A stretch of 64,000 nucleotides of DNA from Marsupella aquatica. Lineage: Eukaryota > Plantae > Marchantiophyta. The position numbers and the translations under genes are program-made. Numbering within the stretch: the stretch's first letter is position 1; each line of letters starts with the position of its first letter. The stretch covers positions 8,456,234 through 8,520,233 of the forward strand of contig OZ316894.1 in assembly GCA_973895155.1 (NCBI GenBank), read 5' to 3'. Below are positions 9,312 to 38,751 of this stretch, in pieces. The notes under the pieces were generated by a model that ran no database searches, had not been told where the DNA came from, and saw nothing but the letters and a program-made list of their open reading frames with translations.

Positions 9312-9663
9312 TTTCTTATAATGGTGCTCTAGAATTGATGGGCCTTGGAGTCGTTGTCAGTTCCCCTGCATTTTCTTTGTCACCACAATCTTCCTTGGAT
9401 CTTGCCTCTTCTTCCACCTCATTGGGGACTTCCGTCTCAATAGTTGATTTACTTGTTCAATCTCAGAATTCCAAACTGCAAAATGACCCTACAGCTCATT
9501 GCTTAGAGGCAACGGAAGCCTCTCCTGATCTGGTATGTGTAATGGATATTCCCCTCTCATCCAATCTGGCACTTCATTTTCATCACAGACTTCTGCCTCC
9601 ATCATGCTGTTCTGTTCACAAGTAGAAATTAGAAAGTGCACTTGGACAATCTCCTTGGAATTG

Positions 9664-10620: not shown

Positions 10621-10822
10621 CATAGAGCATCAACAACGCAGCTTCAAGTCCCGGTACAACTACTGCTCGATCATTGCATGTAGCCCTTAGCAGGAGCTGG
10701 GTCACCGCATGTAGCCCTTAGTAGCTCTCAAGAGCCGCATGTATTCCTTAGCGCCTTAGCAGAATGTCTAGAGAGAAAATTTGAACATTGAATGAGACCC
10801 TAAACTCTGGCAAACGATCCTC

Positions 10823-10857
10823 AACACAGTGACGGACCAAACGAGAAGTGTGACCAC
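10823..10857 (+). repeat. Left TIR of element A
   Basis: AACACAGTGACGGACCAAACGAGAAGTGTGACCAC, preceded by CCTC. Confidence 0.9.
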
Positions 10858-11168
10858 ACTTCTCATTTTGCCCACGGCGAAAAAAGTTTCTAAGGCAAAA
10901 AAGTCTTGGATATAGAATTAGTATTCCCCCTAAAAACTAGTTTTTCGGTTTCAAAAAATGGGAAAAATCAAAGTGAATATGAAGATGGGATACGGCATAT
11001 CCCATTTCGGATCCAACCGCGGAATTCCCCCCCAAAAAAACGAACGCAGTAAAAGTGCCAATATTGTTTTACCCATTAAGAATATTCTCAAACGATTCTT
11101 CTCAACGGTAACATTTAACTGACTGCGCTACAACTGCAGTCAAATACTAACCACGGTCAGGGAGAAAA

Positions 11169-11180
11169 CTATAAATAGGA
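11169..11180 (+). promoter_or_regulatory. TATA box of cargo unit 1
   Basis: CTATAAATAGGA followed by a pyrimidine-rich leader and donor AG|GTGAGA at ~11261; same layout at ~13390. Confidence 0.55.
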
Positions 11181-11289
11181 GATCCACGCTTGAAAATTTT
11201 CCGCTCATTTTTTCTCGCTCTGTATCCTCTTCCTCTCGACGAATGCCCACCATCTAACAGGTGAGAATCTTCATGCAAATGGCAAGGAC

Positions 11290-11945
11290 GAATCCTGAAT
11301 GGGATACAGCGTATCTCGTTTGGGATTCAACCTTCAAATGTCCAGTTTTTGTTTTTGTTTAGTTGAAAAAGGAGGTTGGATGCAAAGTGGGATACGGGGT
11401 ATCCCATATCGCATCCAACCTCCGAATATGAAGTATCTTGGCCTCCAAATGTCAAAACCTCAACGTTGAATGCGAAATGGGATACGGCGTATCCCGTTTG
11501 AGATTCACCCTTCAAATGTCCAGTTTTTGTTTCTCTTCAGTGAAAAAAGGAGGTTGGATGCAAAGTGGGATACGGGGTATCCCATATCGCATCCAACCTC
11601 CGAATATGAAGTATCTTAGCCTCCAAATGTCAAAACCTCAACATTGGATGCAAAATGGGATACGGCGTATCCCGTTTGGGATTCACCCTTCAAATGTCAA
11701 GTTTTTGTTTCTCTTCAATGAAAAAAGGATGTTGGATGCGAAGTGGGATACGGGGTATCCCATATCGCATCCAACCTCCGAATAATAAGTATCTTAGTCT
11801 CCAAATGTTAAAACCTCAATGTTGAATGCGAAATGGGATACGGCATATCCCGTTTGGGATTCAACCTTCAAATTTCCAGATTTGGTTTCTCTTTAGCTAA
11901 AAAAGGAGGTTGGATGCAAAGTGGGATACGGGGTATCCCATGTGG
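11290..11945. repeat. Tandem array of palindromes, 178-bp unit (90+88)
   Basis: GGGATAC-N3-(G/A)TATCCC cores at ~11301, 11389, 11479, 11567, 11657, 11745, 11835, 11923. Confidence 0.93.
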
Positions 11946-12102
11946 TATCTCCCTAGAGTTTTCTTGGCATGGGAAAAATCTTATGGATTGCTGATTGTTT
12001 CGTAGGCAAAGTTCAACTAAACACGCACTGAAGCTCTTGCTGCCTTTCAGTGACTCAAGCTTTTGCTTTCCTGGAAAAATGACATTTTCTCTTGTGAGTC
12101 TA

Positions 12103-12429
12103 ATGGCGGTCCAGAATCAAAACCGTGAGAAACGTGCTCGTCAATTGTATAAGCGATTAGTTGCACTCAAAGTTCTCCGTTTTGGATTAGGAGTGCTATG
12201 GACGGGAGGCGTGGATCCACATGATAGTTTGAATCCACTCCGAATAGAGTTTTGTGAAAAAAATGAAGACGGAGTTCCAATTCGGTCGAGGATATGTTTG
12301 AGTGGTTGTCTGCACTCTGTTAATTCTTCTTGTAATTATTGTCATGATGCCCGAAACAAATATCATCGATTAGCATATTTGTGTTGTCGGATTTGGAACC
12401 AAGATCCTTGGGTTAACTTATTGCGTTGA
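12103..12429 (+). CDS. Small Cys/His-rich cargo protein of unknown function
   Basis: Open frame after a TAG acceptor at ~12005; CLSGCLH..CNYCH..HRLAYLCC cluster. Confidence 0.4.
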   Translation: MAVQNQNREKRARQLYKRLVALKVLRFGLGVLWTGGVDPHDSLNPLRIEFCEKNEDGVPIRSRICLSGCLHSVNSSCNYCHDARNKYHRLAYLCCRIWNQDPWVNLLR

Positions 12430-12608
12430 ATCTTCTTGATTAGTGTGTAAGTGTTAGGTGAACGTTCTTGGTTCAAAAATTTTGTGAATATATTTTTCTT
12501 TTGATCAAAGAAATAAAATCAGTTTTTCCATCACTATTTTGTAGGTTGCTGAGAAAGTGCTCACCATCTCATTTATTACTCCAGGTATCCACTGTCTCTT
12601 ATTTTGGA

Positions 12609-13148
12609 ATGGCCGTCATTGAGAACCCTGTCTTTACAAGGTTAGCGATGTCATTCGACAAAGAGAAGAAACAAATTCAACAGAAAAGTGGCCAAAGGGA
12701 ATCCAGATTGCTTTTGGATGGACTTCCTGATGAGATTGTTGAAATGTTCATTTGGCCCATTTTGAAAGTTTGTTGTATAGAGGATGAATTTGATTCCTCC
12801 AAGAACCAAGCTGATGAAAGATTGATGCGATTAAAAACAATGGTGTGGCTTGGATGCACCTCCAAGAAATGGAACCAACTCGTAATTTGTACACGAGTCT
12901 GGGGTATTCTTAGACTAGCAAGAAGCCAGTTTGAGGAAGTAAATGAAATGCTAACAAGCATTCCCAATGGAAAATCCCTTCAGAATGTTCATATTGAAGC
13001 TTTTGTTAGGATGGAAACACCGAATCTTCCTCCAATCGATTTCTTAGGTTTATTTTCAAGGTCTGACCTAAATCGATTTCAAGAAGACTGGCACAATCTT
13101 GAGAAAGATGAGCAAGCAAGGCTCTTGGAAATGTATGGGGAAGCTTAG
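12609..13148 (+). CDS. F-box-like cargo protein
   Basis: LDGLPDEIVEMFIWPIL ... LGCTSKKWNQLV resembles the F-box consensus (L..LP.EI...I ... CK.W..L) with an insert. Confidence 0.55.
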   Translation: MAVIENPVFTRLAMSFDKEKKQIQQKSGQRESRLLLDGLPDEIVEMFIWPILKVCCIEDEFDSSKNQADERLMRLKTMVWLGCTSKKWNQLVICTRVWGILRLARSQFEEVNEMLTSIPNGKSLQNVHIEAFVRMETPNLPPIDFLGLFSRSDLNRFQEDWHNLEKDEQARLLEMYGEA

Positions 13149-13559
13149 AGCTTTATTTTGTGGCACAATTCCGGATGAATAAAGAGTTTTGTGATTCTAC
13201 CCTTACATCAACCCCATTCGCTAAGCGTAAAATCTATTTGGTTTAATCCAAGGACGTGGGGATATGCCTAATCTAAATCTAGTCAGAAACAAAGTCCTAT
13301 CAAGCAAAAAAAGTATAAATAGACCTCCAGACTCCAACCCTCCACTTTTGGATACACCTTATCGCTTGTGTATACGAAGGTGATAAAGTATAAATAGGAG
13401 TGCCTGGTCAGAAAGTGCACGCTCATTTCTTTTCCTTCTCAATTTTGTTTGCCTCCGCATTTTTCTCGGGCCGCAACATCTCTATAGCTTTTCATATTTG
13501 CTCGAATCAAAACAAAAACAGGTAAAACCTTAAGAAACTCTCCCCTCCTTGGCGTACTT

Positions 13560-14290
13560 CATTGTTGAATCCTGAGTGGGATACGCCGTATCCTCCTTTG
13601 CATTCAACTCTATTCTTTGCCCTTTTGTTCGAAGAATAGAACTTTTCAATGTTGAATACAAGATGGGATACCGCATATCCCATGTCGCATCCAACACCCT
13701 CTTTTTAGTATTCCATCGGAACCTCCTTGCTGTTTGTTGACTTTGAATACGAAATGGGATACCGCGTATCCCATTTCGGATTCAACTACATCTCTTTGGT
13801 CTTTTATTGTAGAGTACTAGAAATTCCTGATGTTTAGGGTTTAGCGCCTTTGCGGAGGATCATTGCACAAGGAGCCGCATTGGATGATGTTGGATACAAA
13901 CCGGGATACCCGTATCCCATTTCGCATTCAACTCCCTATTTTTTGTTGTTTGCATCAGACTAGGCAATTGTTGATGTTGGATGCGAAGTGGGATACCTCG
14001 TATCCCATTTCGCATTCAACTCCCTATTTTGCGTTCTTTGCATCGGACTCTGCAGTTGTTGATTTCGGATGCGAAGTGGGATACCTCGTATCCCATTTCG
14101 CATTCAATTCCCTATTTTTTGTGTTTTGTATCAGACTCGAGGCAATTGTTGATGTTGGATGCGATGTGGGATACCGCGTATCCCATTTCGCATTTAACTC
14201 CCTATTTTTTGTTCTTTGCATCAGACTCTCGGTAGTTGTTGATTTTGGATGCGAAGTGGGATACCGCGTATCCAATCTTGCATTCAACTA
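13560..14290. repeat. Array of palindromes (~87-91 bp spacing) in a probable 5' UTR intron
   Basis: Cores at ~13578, 13665, 13756, 13903, 13990, 14078, 14168, 14258. TATA at ~13390, donor at ~13522, acceptor TTTTACAG at ~14333. Confidence 0.9.
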
Positions 14291-14337
14291 CTTTTGTATG
14301 TTTACGCCTTGGTTTTGTGTCAATATTTTACAGGAAC

Positions 14338-14934
14338 ATGTTGAACAAATCAAAGTCGTCTGCTTCGACCAAATCTTCATGGACGTCTATCGTCGATGAG
14401 ATTTGGAAGAAGGACCTTTACACCGAGGAGAAACTCGTGAGGAATAGGTGGTACTTCAGGGATGCCCGGGCGATGGATATTCACAGAGCCTATGACGGTC
14501 TAGCGATGTGGTTGGTTATAGTTAAGGGTAAAGACCATTGCCATTATGGATTAGTCGTGGACACTGCGGAGGCAGATATCACCGACGCAAAAACCAAACA
14601 GTTGAAGAAGATTCCAATATACCTTTGCATTCTTCCGAACAATGACTTCATTGTAGTTGTCCTCAACTACGAGAAACTCGATCGGGTCTCGATGAACACA
14701 TTTCCTGATGACCCGATTTGCAAGCTAATTTTGGAAGTGTCAGAGATTGATGACTTTTCTTATTGGTGTTTGAAATTTGTCTTAAAGTCTTGGAGGGTTG
14801 TTGAGGATTTTACCAAGGTAGCATATAGGTCCGTCGTTGGAGCCGACTTTGGCGTCAAAGAGCGTTGTCCGGGTGACCGTGTTTTCTGGCAAGAGCATGT
14901 TGGCTCTTTTGAAGTTAACCTTGCATGCTCATAA
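14338..14934 (+). CDS. Cargo protein of unknown function (~198 aa)
   Basis: ATG just after the acceptor; uninterrupted non-repetitive frame MLNKSKSS... Confidence 0.55.
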   Translation: MLNKSKSSASTKSSWTSIVDEIWKKDLYTEEKLVRNRWYFRDARAMDIHRAYDGLAMWLVIVKGKDHCHYGLVVDTAEADITDAKTKQLKKIPIYLCILPNNDFIVVVLNYEKLDRVSMNTFPDDPICKLILEVSEIDDFSYWCLKFVLKSWRVVEDFTKVAYRSVVGADFGVKERCPGDRVFWQEHVGSFEVNLACS

Positions 14935-14937
14935 GTT

Positions 14938-15144
14938 CTACACTAAAATTAAAATGATAATTCTAGTAACAAGGGTAGTGGGTATTAAGAAAGGTTCAGG
15001 TGAAACTAAAATACTGTTAAACCCTACTTCACCATACTTGCGGACCAACACATCACGAAAATTAGTTTTCTTACGACATATGATCCTAATATCTCCAAGA
15101 GAAAATGAAACAGGAATATCATCCGGACTCCTATTCAGATCCAT
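14938..15144 (-). CDS. Small protein B (68 aa), homologous to 38541-38750
   Basis: PVSFSLGDIR...RKYGE.G...S.EPFL conserved with the element B copy despite DNA divergence. Confidence 0.8.
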   Translation of the reverse strand: MDLNRSPDDIPVSFSLGDIRIICRKKTNFRDVLVRKYGEVGFNSILVSPEPFLIPTTLVTRIIILILV

Positions 15145-15148
15145 GACT

Positions 15149-15364
15149 TCAATAAAGGACAAAGATAATGCACTCTAACTCCTCTCGGTACGACATCACT
15201 TGGTATATTATTGGCTCGTTAGAAACCATAACAACAGTTGCAAATTGAGCTCCAAAATGATAGGTTAGATGTTGCCTCATAGATGGTTTGTCTAAAAGAT
15301 GGACTCTAATCAAAAACGGATTACGAAGGGGAAGATCAGGGATAACTCTCTCTCTTGGATTCAT
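15149..15364 (-). CDS. Small protein A (71 aa), homologous to 38752-38985
   Basis: LPL.NPFLIR.H.L.K..M.QH.T.HFG..FAT.V..S.EPI.Y...C.IF.LY conserved with the element B copy. Confidence 0.8.
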   Translation of the reverse strand: MNPRERVIPDLPLRNPFLIRVHLLDKPSMRQHLTYHFGAQFATVVMVSNEPIIYQVMSYREELECIIFVLY

Positions 15365-15684
15365 GATGGCTCTCCTATTCCTTTGCTATCCGGGCCAAAG
15401 GACGCCCCACCCCTATATTCCCCAAAAAACCTTATTCCCTAAGGTCCCATCTATAAGTCTACCACTCATTCCTTTGCTATCCGGGCCAAAGGACGCCCCA
15501 CTACTATGTTCAAGGCACAAAAGAGCTTCACAACCTTGAATGATAAACACTGCGGAATGAGGAAAGAGTGTCACTCACCACTTTATTTATAGTGCACACC
15601 AAGAGGGCATGGATCAAGCCCAAGCACTTGGATGAAGGCCAAGTGGCAAACATCAAATACCTAAGAGTGTGCTAGTACTGTTCA

Positions 15685-15958
15685 TAGTTGGTGAAATTAC
15701 TTTTAGTAGGTGGAACTACCATGCATTGGTGGAACTACTGTGCGTTGGTGGAACTATTGTGCGTTGGTGGACCTATTGTGCGTTGGTGGACCTATTATGC
15801 GTTAGTGGACCTACTATGCGTTGGTGGTTCTACTATGCGTTGGTGGACCTATTATGCGTTAGTGGACCTACTGTGCGTTGGTAGAACTATTGTGCGTTGG
15901 TAGAACTACTCATATACATTGGTAGAACTACTCATATGAATTGGTGGAACTACTGTAT
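15685..15958. repeat. 19-20 bp minisatellite (GTTGGTGGA[A/C]CTA[C/T]TGTGC)
   Basis: About 13 visible tandem copies. Confidence 0.9.
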
Positions 15959-16141
15959 TCCGTTAATATAGCTAAAGAAGTTAATAAAGTCTAAATTTAA
16001 TAATCTAATTACTAAACTACTTATATAATCTATAACATATTAAAACAAACAATTTTTTTATAACTTAAGAGAAAATCACGACAGCGTCCTCTAAAGTTGA
16101 AAGTGACGAATCCTATCGATCCGGCTTCAAAGTCATGGGAG

Positions 16142-18743
16142 ATGTCTGGAACACCCTCGATAAAGGAGAAATCTGCCACAGTTTCTTTTAAGGAACCGGC
16201 AAAAAGGAAGCTTGCAGATCAACTCTCCGGGGAAGGTCCTAAAGCAGCGGTGTCAGGCGAAGCTGCTGGCAAGAAGAAACTGGATCGACGTAACATCCAG
16301 AAGCGAGCACCATCTGCACCCGAAAGTGTTGTCTCATCTTTGGTCCCAACAATTTCACAAACACCGTCTTAGATTCCTTCAACTTTGTCAGGTGGGCCTT
16401 CTCTATCATCTAGGGGTGCTGTGAAAGAAAAGAAAAACAATTCAACAGATATCACCACAGCTTTGCAGCGGGAAGAGACACTTGTGGTTCGTGAAGAAGT
16501 GTCTCAGTTGATGGAGACCAAGAGAGTTCAGAAGACAACTGTTATTCTGAAAACAACTAACCTGCTTCTTGTTGATGATTTTGACGACAAGAACTAAATG
16601 TTGGTTCGAACAGTAGATCGGTTGCATGTAGAGAACATCAAGACTTTGATGAAAATGAATCCAATAAATTTCACCACGCCATTTGTCTTGTTTGTGATCC
16701 CCAAAGATTGCCCGACAGTGACAGACTGGGACCCAGAAAAGGCAACGAGCTGGAGATATCGAGTGATTGGAGGTAATCACGGTGCTCGGGCTAAGAGAGA
16801 ATTGTATCAGGCTTATGGGAGAGAGATCTTCAATGAACTCCAAGCTTGGGTGTATGCTGGTCTCACAAGGGAGGACATTCAGAAACTTAGCATCCAACAT
16901 AATATTGATCAGGAGTACAAGAAAAAAATGAATAACATTGATCAAATCCGAACAATGCATAAGATTTTCCTTGCCAGAGGTATGGCAAAAACCAAGGAGA
17001 CTAGAGAAGCGTGTGCGATGGAGGTTTGCCTCGACGGGTTTTTTCTGGGGGACGCCACAAGCCTAAGGAAGCATGAACCTCTCTTCCAAATTGCGTTTAG
17101 GTTGGGTAAGGTCTGGGAACTCCAAGACCAGATCTTTGAGATGTGGAACAAGTTGGAGATCAAAGGGCAGAATAAGCAGAAGTCACCGATCAAGAAACTG
17201 AAGAAAAAAGGGAAAGCACAGTCGATTCCAAAAGCTTTGAATAAGCTTGTAGGGGGCCTTACCCTGACACCTTGGAGAGCAATCGAGGGAATTGAACACG
17301 ACCGATTTTTGGAGTCCCTTCTTCTACGAGTGAAGGACCGGATGATCTCTTTGGAGCAGATGGCAAAAGAAGCCGAGAGTTACAAGAAACTTGTGAAAAT
17401 CAACAAGCTTTTTGTTCAGTTATCAGGGCAACCAGACTGGGCGACTTGCAAACAAATGTTTCCGAAAGAAACAGAATCTGCCGAGCTTGAAAGATGGAGT
17501 GGGAAGTTGTCCGATGTGGTATGTTCTCCCCTTCCATTGATTGGACTTTTCTCGGATTCACTTGTGTTTATTTGACGTTTGTGATATTTCAATGAGGTTT
17601 TTGCTTGGTCAAATGCGAAGTGGGATACGGCGTATCCCATCTCGGATTCACTTGTGTTTATTTGACGTTTGTGATGTTTCAATGAGGTTTTTGCTTGGTC
17701 GAATGCGAAGTGGGATACGGCGTATCCCATCTCGGATTCACTTGTGTTTATTTGACGTTTGTGATGTTTCAATGAGGTTTTTGCTTGATCGAATACGAAG
17801 TGGGATACGCAGTATCCCATCTCGGATTCACTTATGTTTATTTGACGTTGGTGATGTTTGAATGGGGTTTTTGCTTGGTTGAATGCAAAGTGGGATACGG
17901 GGTATCCCATGTCGCATTCGTCGTCCAGATTTGATTGTTTGAATGCCCAAATGGTTCTCCCCATTGTCTTTTCTCTGGATTCTTTTAACAAGTTTGCGTT
18001 TGCAGTTGAAAGCTTTTTTGAAGAAGAAGAACAAGGATGCAATTGGTGCCGATGCGGTTGAGAAGCCTTCGGAGGAGCTGACTTTGAGTGTTATTCCCAC
18101 GGAGTTTAAGAATTATGTTCAAGAAGCGATTGAGAACTACAACCGTCGTCATGGGATTGAAACGGTTGAAGCGGAGTTGAGTGACCATCGATGGAAAAAC
18201 GCTGATGGAAATTTCATCAAATATACATTGCATTGTGGAGATGTCAGGGCGCTGGATAAGTTTGTAGAGAAAAGGAATTACACACTTGCAATTGCAGACA
18301 TTCCCTATGGATTCAATGCGCCTGGCTCTGAAAATGATGAGCTCCCATTTTCAGAGAGTGATATTGTAGATATGGTGAAGTGTTTTGCCAAGGTGACAAG
18401 TTCAAAGATATGGAGGTTTGTTGTGATTCACTCTTTGCAGCAAACTTGGTCTATGATGAATGCCTTGGGAAAAACTTGTAATGCAGGTGTAGAGGCTGGA
18501 ATTTGGGAGAAGCCAAATGTACATGCTCATCCTTCGGGGAATCGATTGGCTTGGGCTTTTGAAAACTGGTCAATCGGATATTATCACGAGAGTGGTATTA
18601 GGACCAGAGACATGTACAATTTTGAACATGATGAGAAAAGGGTAAACATCATAAAAGTCCCTTGTGTTACAAAGAAATGTGTAACACCATTGGGGGAAAT
18701 AGTGAACCCTTACCAGAAGCCGATAGCTCTAGCAGATTGGTTC
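16142..18743 (+). pseudogene. ParB/Srx-like domain fused to a beta-class N6A/N4C DNA methyltransferase (2 exons; two in-frame stops; 3' end lost to a Gypsy insertion)
   Basis: Exon 1 (16142-17518): VRTVDRLHVENIK..M ... YRVIGGNHGARA, ParB-like. A GT-AG intron at 17519-18005 joins the exons in phase 0. Exon 2: LHCGDV..L..., LAIADIPYG (motif IV), IWEKPN, NPYQKPIAL. Confidence 0.78.
17551..17915. repeat. 4 x 90-bp tandem repeat carrying the palindrome, inside the ParB-MTase intron
   Basis: Units start CTCGGATTCAC at 17551, 17641, 17731, 17821. Confidence 0.95.
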
Positions 18744-18857
18744 TGTGATGCCTAGCCAGGAATCACTCGGCCAGTTAAGTGGGTAAAGCAGGAGTGCACC
18801 CTAGAAACACCTTAGTATAGGGACAAACAAGGGAAATATAAACAATTAGGGGCGACT

Positions 18858-21800
18858 ATGGAACCCGGGCCGAGGCCGGAGGTAAGGACGCTGGGGGTGA
18901 AAATAAGATTAGGGTTAGGGCGCGCTAAGCGTTGGCGACTAGGAAGGATCAACGGGAGGAAGGACCGGAAGAGGAGAGGGGTAAGGAGCGCTTGCAGGGA
19001 ATGGTGGCTCATTTGCGAGCACGAACTAGGCAGACGACTACGGGAGGCCAACTACTGTCAACTGCTTAGGCAAGCACTCGGGGAGAGAGTAGATACCGAC
19101 GATGGACCTAAGGAGGGTATGAGCAACGTCAATCAAGCGGCACATTTCTGGGGATGCCTGTTCGAACGGGCAACTGAGTACATCAAGACTTACGGGGACG
19201 AAGAATCAGAAAGGGCAGCTCGAGAACGGCAGGAGCTCGCTCGATTGTGGGAGCTGCAGAAGACGGCTTTCTTAGGAGGCGAACTCATCAAGGCCGAGTT
19301 CTTGTGGACTCCTACTCCCAATCAGCTCGACGATCTTCTGTTTTGCGAAGATAGAGTCGTCGGCATCCGAGAAGCCATCAAACGCTGCAACAACATACAC
19401 TGGGAGTTGAAGGGTAGCACGGAGGGGTGGACAAAGGCAACCGTGCTAGGAGAGACATCCACGGGAACCAAAATGAAGAGGAAGGGAGCCGTCAACGATG
19501 AAACCACCCCGGCAAAAAGAACGAGGTCGGCGGCACCAAAGAAGCCAGCCGAGCAGCAGAGCAGGAGGCAAGGAGAAGCTGAAAAGGAGGAGGACAATCC
19601 CATCAATGCCATTCCAACCAGGGATGACACCTGGAAAGGCTGGGCGGCAACCCTACCAGAGGAGGTGCAACTACATTTTGCACGGGAGGAGAATGCATGC
19701 TTTACGGCCATGCAGACCAAGAAGTACCAAGGCTTCATGGCCGGATCCGGCTTAGAGGCCTTTGTAAGATTACCATGGCTGAAGCCGGAGGTGCCGGATT
19801 CAGACCTATTAGAATTCGTGGGGTCATGGGAACCCAAGACCAATTCCACGAGGATATATGGGAAGGATTTCTATCTTACTCCCAAGGTGATTGCCAAAGT
19901 GTTTGGCTTGCCGATAGGCAATAAGACCAAAGTTGATACCAGGAAGACCCTGCCTGACAAGGAGTTCCGGTCGTTCCCCGGGCCATCAACGAAGAATGGC
20001 TTCTTCCGGAACACCTGCACCAACCCGCACATAGGAGAGATGATCGACTTCTTGCAAGTGACCATGCATTGTAACTTGCCGAGGGCAGAGATCGGCAAGG
20101 CACAGGTCTATCTGGCAGAGAGGCCAGACCTAAGTCGGGACTAAAACGGGTACCTCCTCAACCAATTGAAGAAGATCTTAAAGGAGGAGCAGCAGGTAAT
20201 CGGCCTAGGGAGCGTGTCGCGGCTTGGCTATCACATGCCGCTGTTGTGCCGGTATGCCAAAGGTCAGACCTTTGCCCCAGTACTTCCCCTGCAGGTATGG
20301 GCACCCGAGGAAGCTCCAGCACCGAGGCCGGTAGCAGAGAAGCCTCAACCACCTGTTAGCCCTACGATTGAGCAGGTGTTTAGGCCAAGGAAGGAAGACT
20401 TGCCGATGCAGCAACCAAGCATGCAGAATTTGCTGAAAATGCTGGAGAAGGAAAAGACGGCACTGGCACCAGCTTTGGCAGCGGCACCAATACAGGACAC
20501 TGCCCCAGAGGTCAACCTAAGCAGACTTAGAAGGGAAAACCCCTTTACCAGAAATAAGGAGAGAATCAGGCCAGAATCCAAGCCGGGTGTTCGAACGTAC
20601 GTGGGAGTCTCAAGCTTTGAATCTGAGGCAGAATTGCCTGAAGCTCCTACCGGCGAAGAGGAGAGGGAGAAGCCGGAAGTCCAAGAGGTGGAGGCAGTGG
20701 AGGACTGCAGCCATGATAACTCCGGCTATGGGTCGGACCATCACGTTCCAGGAGTAAGGACCTGTGGCCGGTTTATCCCCACACTTCCAAGGGTAGTTCG
20801 AGGGGACCCCAACTAGCAGAGTAGCCCCGAGTCTCCCCCACCAGATGTTGCTCTCCCGAGCTTTGACGGCATAAAGCAGACGGCACAGGAATTTCAGGAG
20901 CGACTTAGGGAAGCAGAAAAGGCAGCCCTGGCTAGGGAAAAGGATTTGCCAGGAGGAGATTGGCCGGAGGACATCAGGCGGCTAGCCAAAAAAGGAAGCA
21001 AACCTCTAGCCACGATTGAAGAGATCCGCAAGACGGCTTGGGAGCAGAGGCCGCGATGGGCGATGCCGATCACTTCTACTTACTCCACCTACGCTAAGAA
21101 TAGAGCCATGGAGTATGGTGAGATATGTGGGGAACTTGCGCTCGGCATCTTTGGGGAGGAGTTGGAGGTAGGACCCTTTTTCCATAGGGAGCAGTTGGAG
21201 AAGCACCAATTAGAAGAAGCGGTGGCTTTAGAGAGAAGCAAGAAGGACGAGGTCATCCGGCGGCTTAGGAGGATGGAAGCCGAGATTGAAGATCTAAGGG
21301 CGGCCAAGAAAGCCCAAGATGAACTGCGGATTAAGCGGCATGAGCTGAACATCATGCAGGGGCAGTTGGACACCGCGCAGGCTGATAATCAGATTATCAA
21401 GGATAAACTGACTCAGACCCAGGGAGAATTGGCCGACGCAATCAAGGATAGGAAGAAATGGAAGAAGGAGCTGAGAGACGCAGAGGAGGCCCATATAGCA
21501 ATCAACAACCAGGTCACGGTGGAGACTCAGAGAAGGGCGAGGGCGCTGAAGGAAGAGCTCGAGGTCATCCGCAGAGCCCTTGAGCAGAAGGAGGCCGAGT
21601 TAGGGAAATCCTATCAAGGGATTGTTGCGCTACAGCAGGAGCTTGCGTCCCTGACGGCCAGCTTCAAGGCCGACCTGCGGGAGAAGGACGCCCAGTTCGA
21701 CCAGACTTATGCCAAGATGAATAACATGGAGTCTGAGGTTGTAGCGGAGCTCGACAAGGAGCTAAGAGCAACCCAGGAGGAGAGGGCTACCACCAAGAAG

Positions 21801-22199
21801 GAATTGGAGGAAGCCCACAGGGAATTGGAGGAAGCCAAAAACGAGCTGGAGGAGGCACGTAAGGACCTGGATGAGACCCAGGAGGAGTTGGAGGAAATCA
21901 CGAGGAAGATGGAGAACCTACAGCGGCGGGCCGACAACCAAACAGAGTCGCTGAAGAAACAAGCCGCAGTATTTAAATGCTTAGCTGCATCAGGTCCATC
22001 TCCCGTTGGGGCAAACCAGTTACCCAGGGTGGTAATTGCCGAAGGACCAGCCGTGACACACGGCCCGGTGCCGGACATTGGCGGCAAGGGGAAGGAACCG
22101 GCTATGGAGATAGTGAAGAAGAAGAAGCGGAACCTTCGGGGTCTGGAGGTTATTCGACCCCTCAAGCCGTACTCAAACCGGTACCAACCTCCGGCATGA
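18858..22199 (+). pseudogene. Long accessory ORF (~1100 codons, same frame, with stops): plant-mobile-domain-like region and coiled coil
   Basis: ORFs 18858, 20166 and 20946 are in one frame. GLEAFVRLPW...LTPKVIAKVFGLP, then heptad-rich EEA/ELE repeats. Confidence 0.7.
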
Positions 22200-23409
22200 A
22201 CACGACAATAGATCCCGCTATCACCAAAGGTGGGGATGGCGCGGCCCAAGCCGAACTACTCAGTAATGAGGCCGGTATCCCAGATCCATCTCTTGAGCAG
22301 GCCGGGGAGGCCGTGGCCGAAGCTGAGGCCGTAGCCGAGAATGATTTCTGAGCCGAGGCCGAAGCCGAGGGTGGGCCCAGTCAGGCCGATGAAAAGTTGA
22401 CTCGGTCAGAGGCAGGAATCTGTCAGAGGACGGACCAACAACAGTGGTTGCGGAGGGAGCGTTGGGGGCGCCCATTGAGGATCCACCACCGGTGTCGTGA
22501 CGGTGCAAGGGCGTCGTTCCTTTTAGGAAGGGCGGACGTGGAGGGAGGAGGCGTGAGTGGGCAGAGCGGGCTCAAATCTCTAAGTTTAGGATTAGGATCA
22601 GGACCAGGAGGCGGCCCTGACACTTAGCTTAGTGGGATTGCGGTTCCACTGGTAAGAGCAACACTTGTACTTCTACCTCGCTGTACATAGGTAGATCCAG
22701 TTAGGTAGATTAGGCTTACGCTGCAAAGGATTAGGCGGATCCACTACCAGGATAAGTACCTGGGCAGCGGGGAGCTCAGGGCCTCTTCTTTAGCAAGTTT
22801 TTAGTTGCACCAGCCGGGCTGGGATCAAGTAGTAAGAGAAGCTCTCGGTTAGTCATACAGTGACCTTTGTGTATATTCATGTTTCCTCATGCCTAAGAGC
22901 TGAATAGAGTTGGCCTCACGGCTTAGTTCGCAGAGCTTGTGTATGAGATGTACTGTTTGTATGGCAAGTGCATGGTATGACTCAGTCAGAAGGAGTCATT
23001 TTGCTAATTGTGTGTCGCATTAACTTGTGTGAAGAGTGCCCACATCAACCAATAGAGGAAGGAAAGTAAGCAGGGGAGTGAGAGTTGGATGTGTCGAGCT
23101 GAGAGAGGTCTTAGCGGCTTAACCAAGCCTATTGGGGATCATTATGGCGGCGGAATCCAAACATACCTAACAAGACGGAGGGGAAGACAAGGGAAGGCCT
23201 AGATTAGGCCGGCTACGTATCTCATGACCCGATGAAGGATCTGTCCAGTATATGTGTGTAAAATGTTAATAGTAGTAGTAGAAGGAGGTTAGCAGCGTCC
23301 CATGCCGCTAAGCCGCGGAAACGGCCTCGCCAAACGCGAAACCTGCGGGAATCAGCTTGCGCTGGGGGGGTTTCTTGGGTTTAGGGAGCCATGGGACGCA
23401 CCACATTTT

Positions 23410-23428
23410 TGGCACTAGATGGAGGGGG
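23410..23428 (+). other. Primer-binding site
   Basis: TGGCACTAGATGGAGGGGG 4 nt after ...CACA and ~50 nt before the gag ATG. Confidence 0.7.
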
Positions 23429-23474
23429 CATTTCTTAAGCCGTGAGATATGAAGTTAGAAAGGAAGCATAGGTA

Positions 23475-25760
23475 ATGACTGACCTTACGCCGAGGGAAGA
23501 AAGAGTGATTCAACGGGAGAGAGCTCGACTACAGCAGCTCGCCGGGTGGCATGATACACAGCGACTGAGAGGGGCAGAAAGAGCTGGTAGCTCCGTAGCT
23601 AGAAGTGGCGTTGAAGAAGACATACCAGAAGAAGAGTCGATAGGAAGAAACGAGTACCCAACCGACATGGGGGAACCAGAGGCACGGCCAGACGAGAGGC
23701 CAGGGACCAGACTGAGCCAACGGTCACGCATTCATTACAAGGCATTTCATGGGAGAGGAGATGAGGATCCGGACGAATGGTTGGATGATTTCGAGGGAAC
23801 CGCTGCAGCAAATGGAGAATCGGCCATCAAGATGCAGATTCTTCCCGGCCTGTTCAAGGGTGAGGCTAGGCCTTGGTACAGAGCATTGGATGTGGAAGAT
23901 CAAGCCATCTGGGATATCTTCAAAACACTATTTGTTAAGGAGTTTCGACCCATTGGAACTTCAGAACTAGCAGTGCTGAAATTGGGACGACTTCGGTTCA
24001 AGGAGAACAAATCCTTTAGGAAGTTCTTGCAACGCTTTCAGAAACTGGTAAGACGTACAAAGACCAATGCATCTGAAGGTATGCAACTTCAATGGTTGGT
24101 GAATGCTTTGCCATAGAAGATGAGTTTTGCAATTAGGAAGGAGAACCCGGAGACCTTGGCCGAGGCAATTAAGGATATTCAATTATACATTAATGCAGAT
24201 ATCACAAGCCGGAAGAAACAGCTTAAGTCTGAGAGTTCCTCATCAGAGGAAGGATCACCCCATAAGAAAAAAGATAAGAAGAAGAAACATTCTAAGAAGT
24301 CAAGAAGTGATAACTCAAGCTCGGATAGTGGAAGTAGCAAGAGTGAGTCATCTTCTAGTTCTGAAGAAGAAAAAACTAGGAAAAGAAAGGCCAGAAGGAG
24401 AGGGAAGATGAAAGTGAAGCTGGAGGCTAAGCCACCAGATAACATCGTGGCCCTTACCGAGCAACTTAAGGCTATAATTGCAGAGGTAAAGCCGAAGAAG
24501 AAGGTAGTACAGGAGGATAGCTCTGTATGGTGTGTCTTATGTTATAAAACCGGACACCATAAAGATGCGTGTCCTAAGCTCAATACTAGTCATGTTCGGC
24601 ATGTGGCCGAGATCAGACCATGTCAGGGAGAAGTAGAGTACTTTCTAGGAGATGCCGCTGATAGTGTTTTCGGCATCAGTGAGACTGGAGCACGAGACCT
24701 ATCCAACAGACCTGCATCTCTGTGGTCAGGATTAAGGAACAACCCGGGAGAGATGTATCCTCGAATTATTCAGGACCCGTCGGTACCTCCTAGGCCGAAT
24801 GTGCAAAGATTTGTGGCATGCTATAATTGTGGTCAACCTGGCCATTTTGCTAGAGAATGCCCGAATGCACGCAAACAAGGTGATGGACAACCAGCTCAGC
24901 TATGTATGGGATGTAGACAGGAGGGTCACATGCTAGGACAATGTCCTACTTGGTTGGTAGGCCTGGCCGCAAATCATAAGCTCTTGCCAGTTAAGGTCTT
25001 ACCGCCAGATATTACCCCCGGAGGAGTTCAAATCAACCACATCGAACTAGGATGGCAAGAGGATGCCGAGGCAGAGTTCGTACCATTTGATGATGAGGCC
25101 GAAGCCCTATCAACCTTCTCAGAAGAGGATTTAGATCATGATTGCTACCGGGTCTCTACTCGATCTACCAGAAGGAAGGAAAGGTGGGATGGGCTAGCCA
25201 AAAATAAAGGGAAGGTTAAGGAGGAAAAGATCGACTCTTCGTCAACATCAACGGAAGGAGAAGGAAGGGCTCCGGCAATACAGGTAAGCCATGAGCCCAC
25301 CAGTGAACCCAATCCTTCACAAGATAGCAACTTCAATCGAGATCATCCTAAGTTGTTCTACCCCTCTGTTACGGCTAGTGTTAAGGAACAACTGCGAGAA
25401 TTAGAAACCCTGGAGAGTACTGAAGCCATAGCCAAGGATATGAAACGAGCAAAAGCATTGTTTGCTTCGGAGGATCCAACAGCTGTGGGGACTAGCGTGA
25501 AAAAACAGGCCGAATCCAAGATAGAGACACCACTGGAGAAACCGATAGTTCCCTATGACCTGGCTAAAGATGTACTAGAATCTAGAGTCTCGGCAACAGT
25601 AGGTCAACTACTGAAAAATAGCCCGTACTTCCGGAAGCAATTAAGGAAGGCTATTCTCGGCAAGCCGAGATTACCCAAGGTAGCAACCAAATCCGACGTG
25701 CTGATGATAGAAGAAGATCAAGGAGCCCCAGCTTTACCATTAATGATTCAAGGAAGCTTT
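23475..25760 (+). pseudogene. Gypsy gag (one in-frame stop, truncated)
   Basis: FHGRGDEDPDEWLDDFE, FKGEARPWY and three CCHC knuckles; homologous to the gag at 7684-9311. Confidence 0.9.
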
Positions 25761-25799
25761 ACCATAACTTTTATTTAGTTCAATTATTAAACACTTTGG

Positions 25800-26024
25800 A
25801 CTAACTTTAAGATTCTTTCTCAAGTACCTCAACAACCAAACAATTCAGATTGTGGTCTTTTTGTTCTTCAAAATATGGACGAAATCAGAATTCAATGGCA
25901 TATTACACAATGCCTTGATGCACAGTCTTTATTTACCGAAAAATGGTACAACTCTAAAAGAGCATGTAACCTTAGAAAATTCATTCGAGATCAAATTCTA
26001 AAATTGATGCATGTACCTGTTTAA
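25800..26024 (+). pseudogene. ULP1/C48 SUMO-protease C-terminal remnant
   Basis: Manual translation (not in the ORF track): SQVPQQPNNSDCGLFVLQNM...KWY...NLRKFIRDQILKL*, the catalytic Q/C motif of peptidase C48. Confidence 0.8.
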
Positions 26025-26035
26025 GGACATCAATC

Positions 26036-28826
26036 TCAATCCTCTGAAGGTGAAGAACCTCGCTCTAATATAGCAGACTCTATAATCTTTTTAGTTTTTG
26101 CTGTTATTTGATTAGTACTTAAAAGCGCAAAGTTGTATGCATACACCGCTGTTGATGATAAAACTAGTTCATCTTGGAGAAGTCGATTAGATATATTATC
26201 TTTCTCTGGAAAATATTTCCCATCAATAGCAGACTCAGCACTTGCCTCAGTTGTGTACCATGTGATTTTGATTCTCTCAGGAATGTCTGCAGTTCTTGTC
26301 AAAATCTTTGACACCTTTGCCATCCAAAACAACTTGCCTTCTGGATCCTTGTGTGCCTCTACACATATCATGGACCACTTATTGTTAACTTCCATATCTC
26401 TGAAATCTCCAAATTTAGCTTGCTTTCGTCGAGGTCCGGAGTACATAATTCTCTATGGTCCAGCAACTTTGTCAACCAAAGTTGGATCAACACCTTCTTC
26501 AACAAGTTCATATTTCACCCTTCGAAGTGTTGCACCTTGATTTTATTGCGGCCAAACCCACTCAAATAACCACTCACCTTCCTCTAGGTGGTTTTTGATA
26601 ATATCTTTTTGTTTCTAAAAAAAACTCATCCACCAAAGTTTGTCTTCATTGTCAAAGTAATTGAAAGCTTCCTGAATAGCTTTTTCATATTTCACCAGAG
26701 TAGTTAACGCACCATCTGTATTGGAAGAATCATGGACATCATCCCTCTCAACACCTTTTGCTGACTTTAGTGACATTTGTGCAGCAACCCACATTCTTGA
26801 AGTTGGAATGTAATTAACAAACGTCACTGCATCTCCCCAATCCTGGGTCGTGGAAAGATGTTTCCCGTGAAATGTTGTCTGTTCGTTTCCATCCTCCATG
26901 ACTCGTTTGAATCTGAATTGCCTTTGAAAAGTTATGAGAGATCTCTCAAGACTCTACCTGAGACTCCCTTCTCATTTGGCTGGTCGGTTTCATTGACAAA
27001 TTTTCAAAAATTGGCTACTTCATCCACAAATATGATCAAAGCTTCAGGGGAATATGCTCATCGAATAATATCCTCAAGAGTCTCCAAGCGAAATGCTTTG
27101 TGCTTGTTTAACCTAGATGAAAATTTACTAAACATCTGATCTATCTGGTCATGTGTATGACCGACCAACAAGAAACCCACTTTAATCTTGTCAAAAATCT
27201 TCAAATCTACTAACATGTGAAGATAAGCCATCAAGAATTTATTCTTGTTTTCCCTAGTGGTATTATCTAATTGAAGATATAACACTCTTGGTAATGTCTC
27301 ATCCCATGTATTCAATACATTTTGAATAACATGTATTAATGGTCAAGTTTGCATCATTATGGATATTGGGATATGTCAAAAATACTTTTGCTGCAAGGTT
27401 CCTGTTGAAGATGAGACAACCTACAACATGTATTGGAATGAAATATTTTTCATCCATATTCTTCGGACAACGAAGAAAATGTGGTAGCTCTGTTTTCTTT
27501 TGATCCATACCATCTATACAAATATCCAAATACTTGTTGGGTTCATCATAGCATTTTTTACGATGGCTAACTTCATCCTTTCCAATGATTGTACTTTTCG
27601 ATGCTCCATAAGGGCATTGATGTACTTTCTTGAAATGATACAATAACAATGAATCAAAAATCAATAACTAAGGATAAACTTTGACAAATATTGAAGTACA
27701 TCATGTCATCAAATTAAAGTTGAAGGTTGTAGTTAGTGGTGCTTACTTTTATCCTCTTCAATTGTTGCTTTGTCCCGAAGAGCCTTGAATTCAGTACAAG
27801 GACCACAAGTAGAAAATCGACTCCTTTTAGGTATTCGTACATTTGGAAACTTTTTTTTTCCAAACACGCAAAAAAATAAGAATATGTAACTTGTTGTTCT
27901 TCTCGCAACATTGTTTCAGCTTCAAAGATTCCATGTATCTCTTGCTTTGTCCAATTGTCTGGCAAGTGATGAATCTCTTTATGGGGAAGACTATCCATAT
28001 TTTTTTGGAAAAAATATTTCAACCATTCCACCAGGTTTAAAAATGAAGGTGAGTCTTCCTTACAAAAGGTATCTTGTTCAATCCTTGTAAACATGTTTGC
28101 ATGGATTGTTGTCAATCTATTATTACCTAAAGAATATAGTTTCTTGAATCCTCCTCTACATATAGGTTGTCCATTTACACTATATCCACGAGAAGTACTA
28201 CTACTGTTCATGATACAACCTCGTAGCAAAATATTTTTCTGCAAGTGTTTAAGACCAAAATAATACTTGCATTGTTTTGAGCATTCCTCTAGACCCAGAG
28301 ACCTCAAACAAAACTTGTCACAACAGGGATACTTAAAAATATCTTTAATTTTGCATTTTCTTAGATTTGCAATGGTAAGTCTATCTTTTCTAATCATCTG
28401 ATCTCTGATTTTTTTGCTGGGTCTTGTCACCTCTACTCTATCCTAAATAGTGTCGGGAGAACTTACCCCCTCACTATTTTCTAGTGAATTAGAATTCAAA
28501 ACAAAAAGATCTTCTGTAGAGTTGTTTCCACTCTCCACATTTTCTATAACTGTTTCATGAACAATCTCACATCCCAGGATCTCTTCCACAACATTTGAGA
28601 TTATAGCAGTCTCTCTGTCATTTGCAGCCACCTCTGATCTCTCTTCAGAGTCTTCTGAAAATGTAATAGGTGTTCGGAGATTTCTAGTTTGAAATCTTCT
28701 AATGATATTCACATCTTCAGTCGCAGTACCGCCCACTTGTCTCTGAGACTGTAATCCCAGCCTAGGTGATTCTTCTCGACTTGAGGGCTCATCTTGACCA
28801 TTGAATAATCTTTGGACAAGTTTCAA
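26036..28826 (-). pseudogene. Sola-like (DUF7869-type) DDD transposase of element A, fragmented
   Basis: CCDKFCL, ICRGGF; CIDGMDQKKT (D1), LYLQLDNTTRENKN (D2), FLLVGHTHDQIDQMFS (D3). Confidence 0.82.
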
Positions 28827-29029
28827 TTTAGCATGTACCCTTGAATTTTTGGGCCCTCTCTCCGGCAGCTCACTTCACAACAATCTCCGAGGAATTTTTT
28901 GGACACTAGATATCTTCCCTCTTCGTTCTGCACTTGCGGTCCAATGGAAGATCCAAAAACCTCACACTGCATCCTCGCCAAAGGGCTTCGAAGCCCAATG
29001 TTGTTAGTTTGACCATTCGGTGAAATAAC

Positions 29030-29410
29030 AGATGGGAATACCGGTTGGGATTCATGGATCCCAACTCGTATTTGTCCTTCGGGACTTCGAAGTGAAAACT
29101 TTCCCACTTGCTATTCTGCGTCATGACTTGGCAATTTTCCATTGCGCAATACAAACTTGGATCCACGTATCCCATTTCGCATTCCACCATCAAAACTCGG
29201 GTTGGAAGTCCGCAAGACCGGTGACTCGGGCACAGGATTCTGCAAAATACCACGAGGGAATACTAAGTGGGATCCATGGATCCCACTTCGTATTTGACCC
29301 ATGGAATTTGGTATTGAAGGAGACAAAATAGGCAATTCGCGTTCACCGTTTCTCAACATTCAAGTAGGGAATACCAAGTGGGATCCCACTTGGTATTCGA
29401 CCCACCATAT
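29030..29410. repeat. Variant palindrome array (GGGATCCATGGATCCC-type, ~111-bp spacing)
   Basis: Cores at ~29047, 29158, 29269, 29380; more copies at ~30274, 30345, 30434. Confidence 0.8.
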
Positions 29411-29471
29411 TTGGCTCCGAGGCTGCCCCTCCCTGCAATTCCGGCACATTTGGACTCCTCATTCGCTCAAA

Positions 29472-29912
29472 CTATGATTGAACACTGGACACAGCTATCT
29501 TCACTCCCGGAGAATGAGACATTGGAAAAACCAACGGAGATCTTCGGGCGGGCCTACATGGTAACGTTGTTCTTGGCATTAAAAACCGGGGCCTTCGTCT
29601 TCGAAGATCTGTCGGGGTTCGCGGAGAACCAGGTATCTCTGTCGTAGGAACTACATTAGGCTTCTTTACAAGTAGACGTCGTTTAAGAGGTTTACTTGGA
29701 GAGACATAGTATGAAATCGGAGCACCCACAACACTCCTACAAGACTCTAAATCGGACTCTGATTTCTCAGATTCTGAGGAAAATGAAATCTCTGGCACTA
29801 CTCTCTGTGAGGCTGGTAATTCATTCATCAAACGAGATGGAATAAATTTTTGAACAACATCTGGCGAAGATGCATCTGAACTGTAAATTGATTCATCAAT
29901 TGAAGACGCCAT
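29472..29912 (-). CDS. Ser-rich ORF, probable first coding exon of the transposase unit
   Basis: ATG downstream of a minus-strand CTATAAAAG (~30064-30072); exon end uncertain. Confidence 0.45.
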   Translation of the reverse strand: MASSIDESIYSSDASSPDVVQKFIPSRLMNELPASQRVVPEISFSSESEKSESDLESCRSVVGAPISYYVSPSKPLKRRLLVKKPNVVPTTEIPGSPRTPTDLRRRRPRFLMPRTTLPCRPARRSPLVFPMSHSPGVKIAVSSVQS

Positions 29913-31000
29913 AGAGAATCAAACAAGGGTTGTATAGGAGTACGTATTCCTATCCAACAGAGATACTTCAGATTACAGTATTCTATGAAAACAACTACTC
30001 AATAGTGAACAAACCTCAAAGTAATCACGAGAAATGAAGATGAAAAACAAATGCGAGCTCTTCCTTTTATAGTTTTCGGGGGCATTGTACATGTGGCATT
30101 CCCTGATTGGTCCGTACGAGGGTTTTTTCAAGTGAGAGTCTATCTTTTCCAGGACTGCTGAAATTTAAATTGTAGATTATTGAGGAAGTCGCCGTGGATC
30201 CGAGTTGGTCTTCAAACTGGAATATCAAGGTATGCGATGCAAAACTTCAAAATGTAGAGGTTGAATACTAGATGGGATCCATGGATCCCATTTGGTATTC
30301 ATCCTCCTGTTTTCCCGATGAGTTTTTGGACTTGCGAAAAAAATGGGATCCATGGATCTCAGTTGGTATTCATGTCGAAAGATCTCCTGATACAAAGTTG
30401 CAGGTGGAAAACATTGAGGTTGAATACGAGAGTGGATACTTGGATCCTGTCTCGTATTCATCATGCGCTATGGGCTAAAAAAATTCCGAACATGTCGTCG
30501 GGTTAACTTAACTAACTGTGTGGGTCGACTATAGTCTGCGGTTAGTTTTTTGCAGTTTTCCGGTTTACCGCAGTTAAAAATTCAAATATTTTTAACCCGA
30601 GGTTAAATGGAAGCATCAAGAGAATGATTTGGTGTGGTTTTCGTCCACGTTCAATAGTTGAATCCGAAATGGGATACGCTGTATCCCAATTTTAGTTTGC
30701 CATTTTGAAGGCAAAAATGAAATCTTGTGTTTTCTTCATTTTGTTTGACTCTCGGATTTAGCTTTTAGAGGATCACGTGAAAAGCATTGTTTTTCTAGGT
30801 TTTGGAATTTGCCCTTTTTTTAGATGAAGTGTATCAGAATTCTGGATTGTAACAATTCTTTGTTTTTGTGTCGACAGTATCTCGATTTGAAATCCGATGT
30901 TGGATGCGATTTTGGATTCATCCTCAAAATAGCATTTTCGATCTTAATTTTAGTGTTTTTTTGCCATTTTTTGCGAAATTGAAAACACACTTCTCGTTTG

Positions 31001-31035
31001 GTGGTCATACTTCTCATTTGGTCCGTCATTGTGTT
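31001..31035 (-). repeat. Right TIR of element A
   Basis: Reverse complement AACACAATGACGGACCAAATGAGAAGTATGACCAC, followed by CCTC. Confidence 0.9.
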
Positions 31036-33232: not shown

Positions 33233-33558
33233 TTTAGGAGTGAAATCTGCAAAGATCCAAATGAATCAAAATTATATCTAAAAGCTAATAAAGAAGAACT
33301 TAGGATCAAACCTGGATCGACCCGACCTAATGGGGAAAACAAACATATCATTTTTGAATGTCAAAGCATTTTGATATATCAATGTAGAAGTACCTTGCTC
33401 AAATGTTTTGTCTTGGACCAGGGTACCGCTTGCTGAAGGTAGACCAATAATATCCTTCAATGGAAGAGATGCTATGACAAAACTTTGGTCTGTCCTATAT
33501 GATTTCCAAACATAATATTTTAGATTATTGTGAAAAATAGAAGAACGAAACCATAGTA

Positions 33559-38750: not shown

Positions 38751-38751
38751 C

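Follow-up and report, generated by a model that had tools for sequence, protein, structure and literature searches.

A large, decayed Sola-type DNA transposon of the liverwort Marsupella aquatica with a predicted ParB-like/methyltransferase fusion gene and phased palindromes

What might a cut-and-paste transposon gain from carrying what looks like a bacterial-type DNA methyltransferase? The question is raised by a locus in the liverwort Marsupella aquatica, situated in a stretch of 64,000 nucleotides (contig OZ316894.1 of assembly GCA_973895155.1, forward-strand positions 8,456,234 to 8,520,233) that is here called the window; all positions are those of the window. At 10823-31035 lies a dead, decayed copy of a large, multi-copy cut-and-paste DNA transposon of the Sola type. 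In addition to its transposase, it holds the remains of a gene in which a ParB/Noc-like module is predicted to be fused to a beta-class amino-methyltransferase, and arrays of a phased palindrome. A sequence-only reading of the window had suggested that such cargo could alter the element's own chromatin state, and self-modification is still the best reading, with about an even chance of being right. The design, Sola combined with a ParB-methylase gene, was described recently, and the element is a new version of it from a land plant. What is new here is the plant lineage, the evidence for a selected core gene, the target word and the rule for its spacing, and the extra cargo.

Ends, transposase and superfamily

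The ends and the transposase gene are as follows.

10819..10822, no strand: left target-site duplication (TSD), CCTC, from the sequence
10823..10857, plus: left terminal inverted repeat (TIR), starting AACAC, a terminus shared by relatives
26036..29911, minus: DUF7869 DDD transposase gene interrupted by stops and frameshifts, its C-terminal domain BAH-like (Pfam, homologues, a relative's model)
31001..31035, minus: right TIR, where seven contigs of the public run X2 exit
31036..31039, no strand: right TSD, CCTC, from the sequence

The TIRs are 35 bp long and identical at 32 of 35 bases, with CCTC outside both, as had been proposed. Native DNA amounts to ~13.2 kb once a nested insert (~18746-25754) is subtracted, in agreement with the earlier picture of ~13 kb of native sequence, a 7-kb insert and a deletion. 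Contigs of X2 have loose ends at 25754 (exit) and 25766 (entry), and a deletion junction is therefore placed there; the deletion removed the end of the methylase gene, the start of a ULP1 protease gene and anything between.

Repetition was judged from public-run contigs aligned to 10000-19500 (four runs) and 25700-31700 (three runs). In X2, contigs of the unique flanks have depths of 19-23, compared with 264 for the ParB exon, 289 for the ULP1 remnant and 214-320 for the transposase. Single X2 contigs of native parts are 10-15 times deeper than the flanks, and X1 shows the same ratio for ULP1; contig depth is not copy number, and this figure is a rough one. Depth drops just past the right TIR, and the seven X2 contigs that exit there depart at exactly 31035 into flanks unlike one another (agreement 0.48). 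The element is a mobile, multi-copy unit of about 10-15 near-identical copies. Several stops and frameshifts of the window copy are missing from most aligned run contigs, which indicates that the family had open genes. No empty-site allele was seen, X1 and X2 both showing the filled right junction; one X1 contig ceases to align at 10819, with 26 letters unexplained, and in-silico joining of both flanks yields no open frame. An Rfam scan of 10700-44000 gave no matches.

The motifs from which a DDD transposase had been recognized (DGMDQ, QLDNTTRENKN and GHTHDQID) all lie on the minus strand, and 27061-27342 matches DUF7869 with E 1.4e-35. Positions 29472-29911 are probably its first exon (5′ part), with a TATA box predicted at ~30070. 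A search found 78 homologues among 251 candidates, the best 63-71% identical; the named ones, from Riccia and Adiantum, are ~50% identical. An Atlas search with the transposase returned DUF7869 or hypothetical clusters only, and viral contigs contained no relative of the transposase or the ParB-methylase gene. In a predicted model of the transposase of a 60-70% identical relative (P0004; predicted local distance difference test, pLDDT, 80), there is an RNase H core with matches to Mos1 and integrases (Z 8.1). The C-terminal domain, as modelled, resembles BAH folds at middling Z scores of 6.0-6.7 and is kept (26036-26450, minus strand) in 25 of 26 aligned homologues; it is possibly a chromatin reader.

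The element fits the Sola superfamily. It has the three Asp motifs of a DDD transposase and a 4-bp TSD, which is CCTC in the window and AACA in the relative L040. A review gives the TIR length of Sola as 11-1124 bp and states that some Sola elements exceed 15 kb. In the two parts of the profile file compared by eye, the published Sola1 profile ends in a pattern (..I.l.fl..gHs) that agrees with KIKVGFLLVGHT. An AWWT target preference has been termed a Sola1 hallmark (PMC3845634). The two TSDs seen, CCTC and AACA, do not follow it, and for this reason the element is kept apart from Sola1 sensu stricto. Trees put the window sequence on long, unsupported branches. Membership in VANDAL (Mutator) was rejected: the DUF7869 transposase, TIRs and 4-bp TSD contrast with a non-TIR Mutator-like element (MULE) that encodes VANC.

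The sequence-only reading took Sola elements to be usually compact and limited to a transposase. This does not hold, since Sola elements of ~10-11 kb in mosses and a fern (PMC12973397) and of 21.5 kb in Ectocarpus (PMC12477816) appear in the accessible parts of two reports. In the accessible tables of the former, cluster 4009 of the fern Cibotium barometz and the moss clusters 4006-4008 measure 9.9-11.2 kb, although the sequence column seems shifted by one row, and these entries list no genes (PMC12973397). Cluster 4009, scored there as Sola1, has an AACAC TIR that resembles that of the relative L013, a 4-bp TSD and 19 recent copies, whereas the moss TIRs start with GGGTG (PMC12973397 Table S2).

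A selected core gene of ParB-like and methyltransferase parts

The second gene lies on the opposite strand.

16064..17518, plus: ParB/Noc-like exon, with two in-frame stops in the window copy (homologues; model of L013)
17519..18005, plus: phase-0 intron with a palindrome array of four copies in 90-bp units (GT-AG splice prediction; homologues break at the same place)
18006..18745, plus: amino-methyltransferase exon of the beta class (with DIPY and NPYQKP), truncated ahead of motif I (homologues, profiles)

That these are parts of one fusion gene, as claimed earlier, is borne out: the exons ending at 17518 and starting at 18006 connect in phase, and a single Adiantum protein matches both halves at 32%. 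The window methylase exon has lost the S-adenosylmethionine-binding motif I at the insert junction and alone gives no Pfam hit. Full-length homologues retain motif I and match PF01555, and the family shows the beta-class motif order IV ... X-I, with D/S-x-P-Y and an FxGxG-like motif. A search with this exon found 123 proteins at E <=0.001, 15 of which match the ParB exon too. Twenty homologues were traced: Chara has five, Riccia two, and Adiantum, Ginkgo and Cymbomonas one each, with no organism given for ten. Among the Riccia and Adiantum locus tags compared, no methylase homologue is adjacent to a transposase homologue.

An alignment-profile search of the PDB placed MboIIA, DpnA, CcrM and RsrI first, the best solved relatives being the adenine methylases MboIIA and DpnA; matches to phage methylases are at 23-29%. 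Motif IV takes the form D-x-P-Y in most of the homologues showing it, with DIPY (29), DAPY (9), DVPY (8) and DPPY (2), and never SPPY. This D-x-P-Y pattern favours adenine as the modified base. The form D-L/I-P-Y is common in phage methylases.

A predicted model of the ParB exon of L013 (pLDDT 73.6; 37% identical to the window exon) has Noc/ParB matches (Foldseek, Noc, E 7.7e-6) and aligns with KorB at Z 8.7 across both domains (model positions 256-546), the KorB DNA-binding domain giving Z 5.0. The model thus contains a ParB/Srx fold followed by a helical DNA-binding region. The module is called ParB-like, not a ParB CTPase, because it has lost the arginine of GxxR, which we take to be the cytidine triphosphate (CTP)-site motif of ParB. 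Compact relatives (L013:3500-3900, minus strand, and related loci) have an extra N-terminal PH-like domain (Z <=5) on the ParB-methylase, which the window copy does not have.

Is the gene a stray passenger? Relatives were sought with the transposase; the best 80 of 113 metagenome loci and three contigs of metagenome-assembled genomes (MAGs) make up 83 loci. The ParB-methylase matches at 16 of them. Where at least 3 kb of upstream sequence is available it is present in 14 of 17 loci, and 13 of the 14 are head-to-head. The closest relative, L001 (transposase 63% identical), shares the tail-to-tail placement of the methylase seen in the window, no ULP1 separating the two genes. Protein distances of transposase and ParB vary together (Spearman 0.84 over 15 loci; 0 of 5000 permutations), L042 and L043 being the exception to this co-divergence. 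The ratio of nonsynonymous to synonymous substitution (dN/dS) of the ParB-methylase is 0.02-0.11 in the seven of 53 pairs with measurable dS, the others being saturated, and by this codon comparison the methylase gene is under purifying selection. Because it is linked to the transposase, diverges in step with it and is selected, the ParB-methylase gene is a core gene of the family, not stray cargo.

Four of the loci are complete elements, each of two genes, that measure 6-7.8 kb and have AACA[CT] at both ends; many more right ends share this terminus, with varied flanks. The ULP1, F-box-like, Cys-rich, 198-aa and 70-aa open reading frames (ORFs) of the window match at none of the 83 loci. The family core therefore consists of two genes, and the window represents an expanded subfamily. 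The earlier notion of a large, cargo-carrying family thus stands for size, repetition and the presence of extra genes, but only the ParB-methylase recurs among the relatives.

Palindrome arrays and what they may do

The best clue to mechanism comes from arrays of a palindrome, GATRC-N3-GYATC, absent from the sequence-only reading. Besides that of the methylase intron, these are:

11290..11950, no strand: seven GATAC-N3-GTATC in 88/90-bp units, predicted 5′-untranslated-region (UTR) intron (splice sites and TATA box predicted)
13560..14290, no strand: six N3-type palindromes, predicted 5′-UTR intron (sequence prediction)
29000..29420, no strand: variant palindromes of GATCC-N2-GGATC type, 5′ part of the transposase gene (motif search)
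30250..30700, no strand: palindromes upstream of the transposase TATA box (motif search, predicted TATA box)

The window has 18 copies of the motif, all within native element DNA, where 0.2 is expected from shuffles; the relatives have 144 copies across 29 of the 83 loci, against 0.6 expected. All 144 strict motifs are upstream of the transposase; they lie between the divergent genes where both are visible, and in mid-element in the complete relatives. In the window they occupy predicted 5′-UTR introns, the methylase intron and the promoter side of the transposase, but not the TIRs. Motif spacings cluster at 31, 41, 51, 62, 72, 81, 92 and 102 bp, and the 29 distinct spacings are phased near 10.2 bp, a phasing equalled by none of 2000 random sets. 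Such phasing suggests a protein that sits along one side of the double helix. A version of the palindrome with an N4 spacer gave three matches and was replaced by N3. The first array (11298-11941) alternates units of 88 and 90 bp, a 178-bp dimer near nucleosome repeat length.

How could these parts work together? The product of the fixed second gene, a predicted ParB/Noc-like module fused to a beta-class amino-methyltransferase, likely loads on the helically phased palindromes. It likely methylates the element's own DNA, N6-methyladenine (6mA) being more probable than N4-methylcytosine (4mC). Such a mark would keep the promoters and introns of the element clear of host 5-methylcytosine (5mC) silencing, in the way VANC acts on VANDAL. 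That the protein binds the arrays, that it is catalytically active, which base it modifies and that this counters silencing we infer from gene and motif features, and the chain as a whole, from the Sola-type element to its escape from silencing, seems about as probable as its negation. The CpG observed/expected ratio, 0.81-1.39 in the arrays versus 0.40-0.62 in the two main genes, fits self-protection, though it is confounded.

It should be pointed out that several observations weigh against this mechanism. The motif itself may produce the high CpG of the arrays. The GxxR arginine is replaced in all 22 rows that show the motif (27 rows; five are without it), and G-x-H-[S/G/T/C/Y] is read in 22 of the 27, which makes CTP-driven spreading doubtful. 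DPPY has mostly lost its first proline, the reading in one Adiantum copy is AEAPY, and the methylase-like gene of a second, neighbouring element is without D-x-P-Y. Retrotransposon DAM enzymes, which belong to another class, are inactive in E. coli. The linkage is drawn largely from kin, which are not independent: a single assembly series supplies 14 of the 16 linked loci, which group into 11 DNA clusters, while L001 and L075 derive from other samples. The 4-bp TSD expected earlier is seen in the window and in only one of the four complete relatives (AACA in L040); L013, L015 and L056 have no matching TSD and may be collapsed or old. Finally, in the distant loci L081-L083, GATTAC-N2-GTAATC palindromes flank the transposase on either side, and these contigs of 3.6-6.3 kb show no methylase. 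They are DUF7869 contigs in bacterial MAGs (GTDB) and probably represent eukaryotic contamination.

Other explanations have to be considered. Perhaps the fusion protein binds the palindromes and acts as a VANC-like anti-silencing or activating factor without methylation, the methylase fold serving as a scaffold. This is unlikely, although the arrays occupy introns and promoters, like the targets described in the accessible text on VANC (PMC5735166), DPPY is non-canonical here, and the second element combines a TCGCTC-N3-GAGCGA palindrome with a degenerate motif IV. The retention of motifs IV, X and I together and the low dN/dS on the methylase exons argue against a mere scaffold, as does the frequency of D-L/I-P-Y in phage methylases. 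A slightly less probable idea is that methylation is repressive self-control, damping the transposase promoter or tying jumps to replication rather than opposing silencing; Dam acts on IS10 and Tn5 and provides the model. The arrays of compact relatives do lie in the promoter region shared by two divergent genes, the motif contains GAT..ATC on both strands, and the copy number, ~10-15 near-identical copies, is modest. Yet the window arrays also precede unrelated accessory genes and sit in the methylase intron, and none is at the TIRs.

The palindromes could instead be binding sites of the transposase, with its BAH-like reader, and the methylase could have other targets, such as ends, new copies or RNA. 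The flanking palindromes of L081-L083, where no methylase is seen, and the middling BAH resemblance of the C-terminal domain speak for this, and transposases that activate cognate copies appear in the accessible part of a preprint (10.64898/2026.08.24.746577). Strict motifs are, as noted, invariably upstream of the transposase and mid-element rather than subterminal, and ParB/Noc folds are established binders of palindromes, so that this proposal is rated a little lower again. By far the least probable is passive capture of the Pack-MULE kind, in which all extra ORFs would be functionless fragments of host genes. The window copy is broken, and its ULP1, F-box-like, Cys-rich and 198-aa ORFs match none of the 83 relatives; however, passive capture is untenable for the ParB-methylase gene, given its linkage, co-divergence and selection, and for the pair of 70-aa ORFs (dN/dS 0.2-0.3). 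The other ORFs may have been captured in this way.

If the element does methylate itself, local 6mA/4mC signals in plant repeats should not all be written off as noise. To our knowledge, non-flowering plant genomes are thought to be without abundant 6mA. A more speculative extension, offered tentatively, is that a widespread transposon family of non-flowering plants uses a system like ParB/parS to label its own DNA with a private methyl mark of bacterial type, in which reader and palindrome co-evolve by clade, the neighbouring element having another palindrome, and cassettes are swapped between clades. This would be a second anti-silencing strategy next to VANC, chemically orthogonal to it, and a sequence-specific module for epigenome editing.

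Related designs, accessory genes and a second element

The sequence-only reading knew of no description of such an element; one for a brown alga appeared in 2025. Sola1-1_Ec32 of Ectocarpus, according to the accessible text of its report, is a giant Sola element of 21.5 kb with nested insertions and a ParB/N4-N6-methyltransferase gene opposite the transposase, for which self-marking, the same role, has been proposed (PMC12477816). The likeness, including the opposite strand of the fusion, is one of description. The present lineage differs in being that of land plants/streptophytes, with 5mC silencing. The main text on Sola1-1_Ec32 contains no analysis of motif, phasing, selection or co-divergence ('palindrom' has no hits in it), and the accessible account has no ULP1 and no two-ORF cassette (PMC12477816). 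The algal ParB-methylase cases are predictions, to which the plant family adds a defined target word, a spacing rule, many intact relatives and hosts with 5mC silencing.

Giant Plavaka (EnSpm) transposons of Bostrychia with PAG2/PAG3 are also comparable, as far as the accessible text goes: they carry a PF01555 methylase gene and a ParB-like gene, whose product is proposed to bind their tandem inverted repeats (bioRxiv 2025.02.11.637652). They differ in transposase superfamily and in having ParB-2OG (2-oxoglutarate) oxygenase and methylase-SET fusions as separate genes. The same text singles out VANDAL as the sole DNA transposon for which binding and modification of its own sequence are known (bioRxiv 2025.02.11.637652). 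VANDAL/VANC and the Kaonashi ULP1 Mutator elements share with the present element, in the available parts of two reports, an element-encoded chromatin factor, ULP1 cargo, and short target motifs in tandem repeats that lie in introns and upstream regions (PMC5735166, PMC13317346). In contrast, these are non-TIR Mutator elements, VANC is not a methylase, its motifs are non-palindromic and its function has been shown experimentally. MpDN4MT1, the bdelloid N4CMT and the retrotransposon DAMs are likewise prokaryote-derived amino-methyltransferases in eukaryotes, some on mobile elements. However, the first two have an SPPY motif and are host genes, the DAMs are of another class (NPP motif) and reside on retroelements, and 'ParB' has no hits in the main texts on the three. 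No published description of the methylase gene, the motif or the phasing in the land-plant family was found in a search that lay outside Repbase, most subscription papers, Table 6 of the Bostrychia work and the Ectocarpus transposable-element library, the last two of which may hold related families.

The remaining features of the element are these.

12079..12429, plus: Cys-rich ORF, 116 aa, multi-copy, no family match
12609..13148, plus: ORF of 179 aa with a weak F-box-like motif, multi-copy
14338..14934, plus: ORF of 198 aa, multi-copy, no homologue found
14938..15144, minus: small ORF B of a two-ORF cassette, 68 aa, 50% identical to 38541-38750
15149..15364, minus: small ORF A, 71 aa, 55% identical to 38752-38958, ending 4 nt before ORF B
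15365..16050, minus: cassette promoter and 19-bp tandem repeat, with a 73% DNA match of 15521-15681 to 39437-39596
18746..25754, plus: nested high-copy long terminal repeat (LTR)-retroelement fragment, non-native (gag, zinc knuckle, protease start; run depth)
25766..26009, plus: C-terminal remnant of a ULP1-type protease, multi-copy (Peptidase_C48 E 1.5e-5)

The window subfamily acquired its ULP1, F-box-like, Cys-rich and 198-aa ORFs, and the ~70-aa pair, at a later stage. The Cys-rich ORF, the 198-aa ORF of no known family and the small pair are present as first read. The ULP1 protease is real but survives only as 73 aa of its C-terminal part, and the F-box-like ORF exists in many copies but its F-box match (E 0.51) is under the Pfam threshold. 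Neither Pfam nor PHROG has a match to the Cys-rich or the 198-aa ORF, the latter has no homologue among proteins of 109-349 aa, and an Atlas search with small ORF A gave nothing. Compared with their neighbour copies, ORF B has dN 0.50 and dS 2.56, and ORF A dN 0.41 and dS 1.28. In run contigs, the depth of the cassette promoter/repeat region exceeds that of the rest of the element about tenfold.

The nested insert comprises a long broken ORF, an LTR-like end with a primer-binding-site-like site at ~23405, gag and a protease start. The broken ORF, upstream of the LTR-like end (18816-22199, plus strand), is a single frame of ~1130 codons with two stops; it has very high run depth and shows coiled coil only, with no family match. 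The element is surrounded by older retroelement debris, with zf-RVT and gag pieces at 9908-10453 and 8430-9356 (both minus strand). Farther along the window, 58000-59100 is ~1 kb of AT-rich repeats with 7% GC.

A second, distant element with the same plan occupies 32300-43500; its ends were not found. It contains FCP1/NIF-like ORFs (E 7e-7), a divergent DUF7869-like transposase (~40500-43500), ~35% like that of the first element, and a methylase-like gene (~33900-36800, minus strand) with NPHAKP and FFSGG motifs, which the fusion profiles do not match. Its palindrome, GGGTCGCTC-N3-GAGCGACCC, is present in three perfect copies at ~36960-37090. The two-ORF cassette occurs in both elements (14938-16050 and 38541-39960), with products of 68-71 aa that are 50-55% identical, 1-4 nt from stop to next start, and promoter DNA in common. 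It may be a module that has been swapped, or else a small element in its own right.

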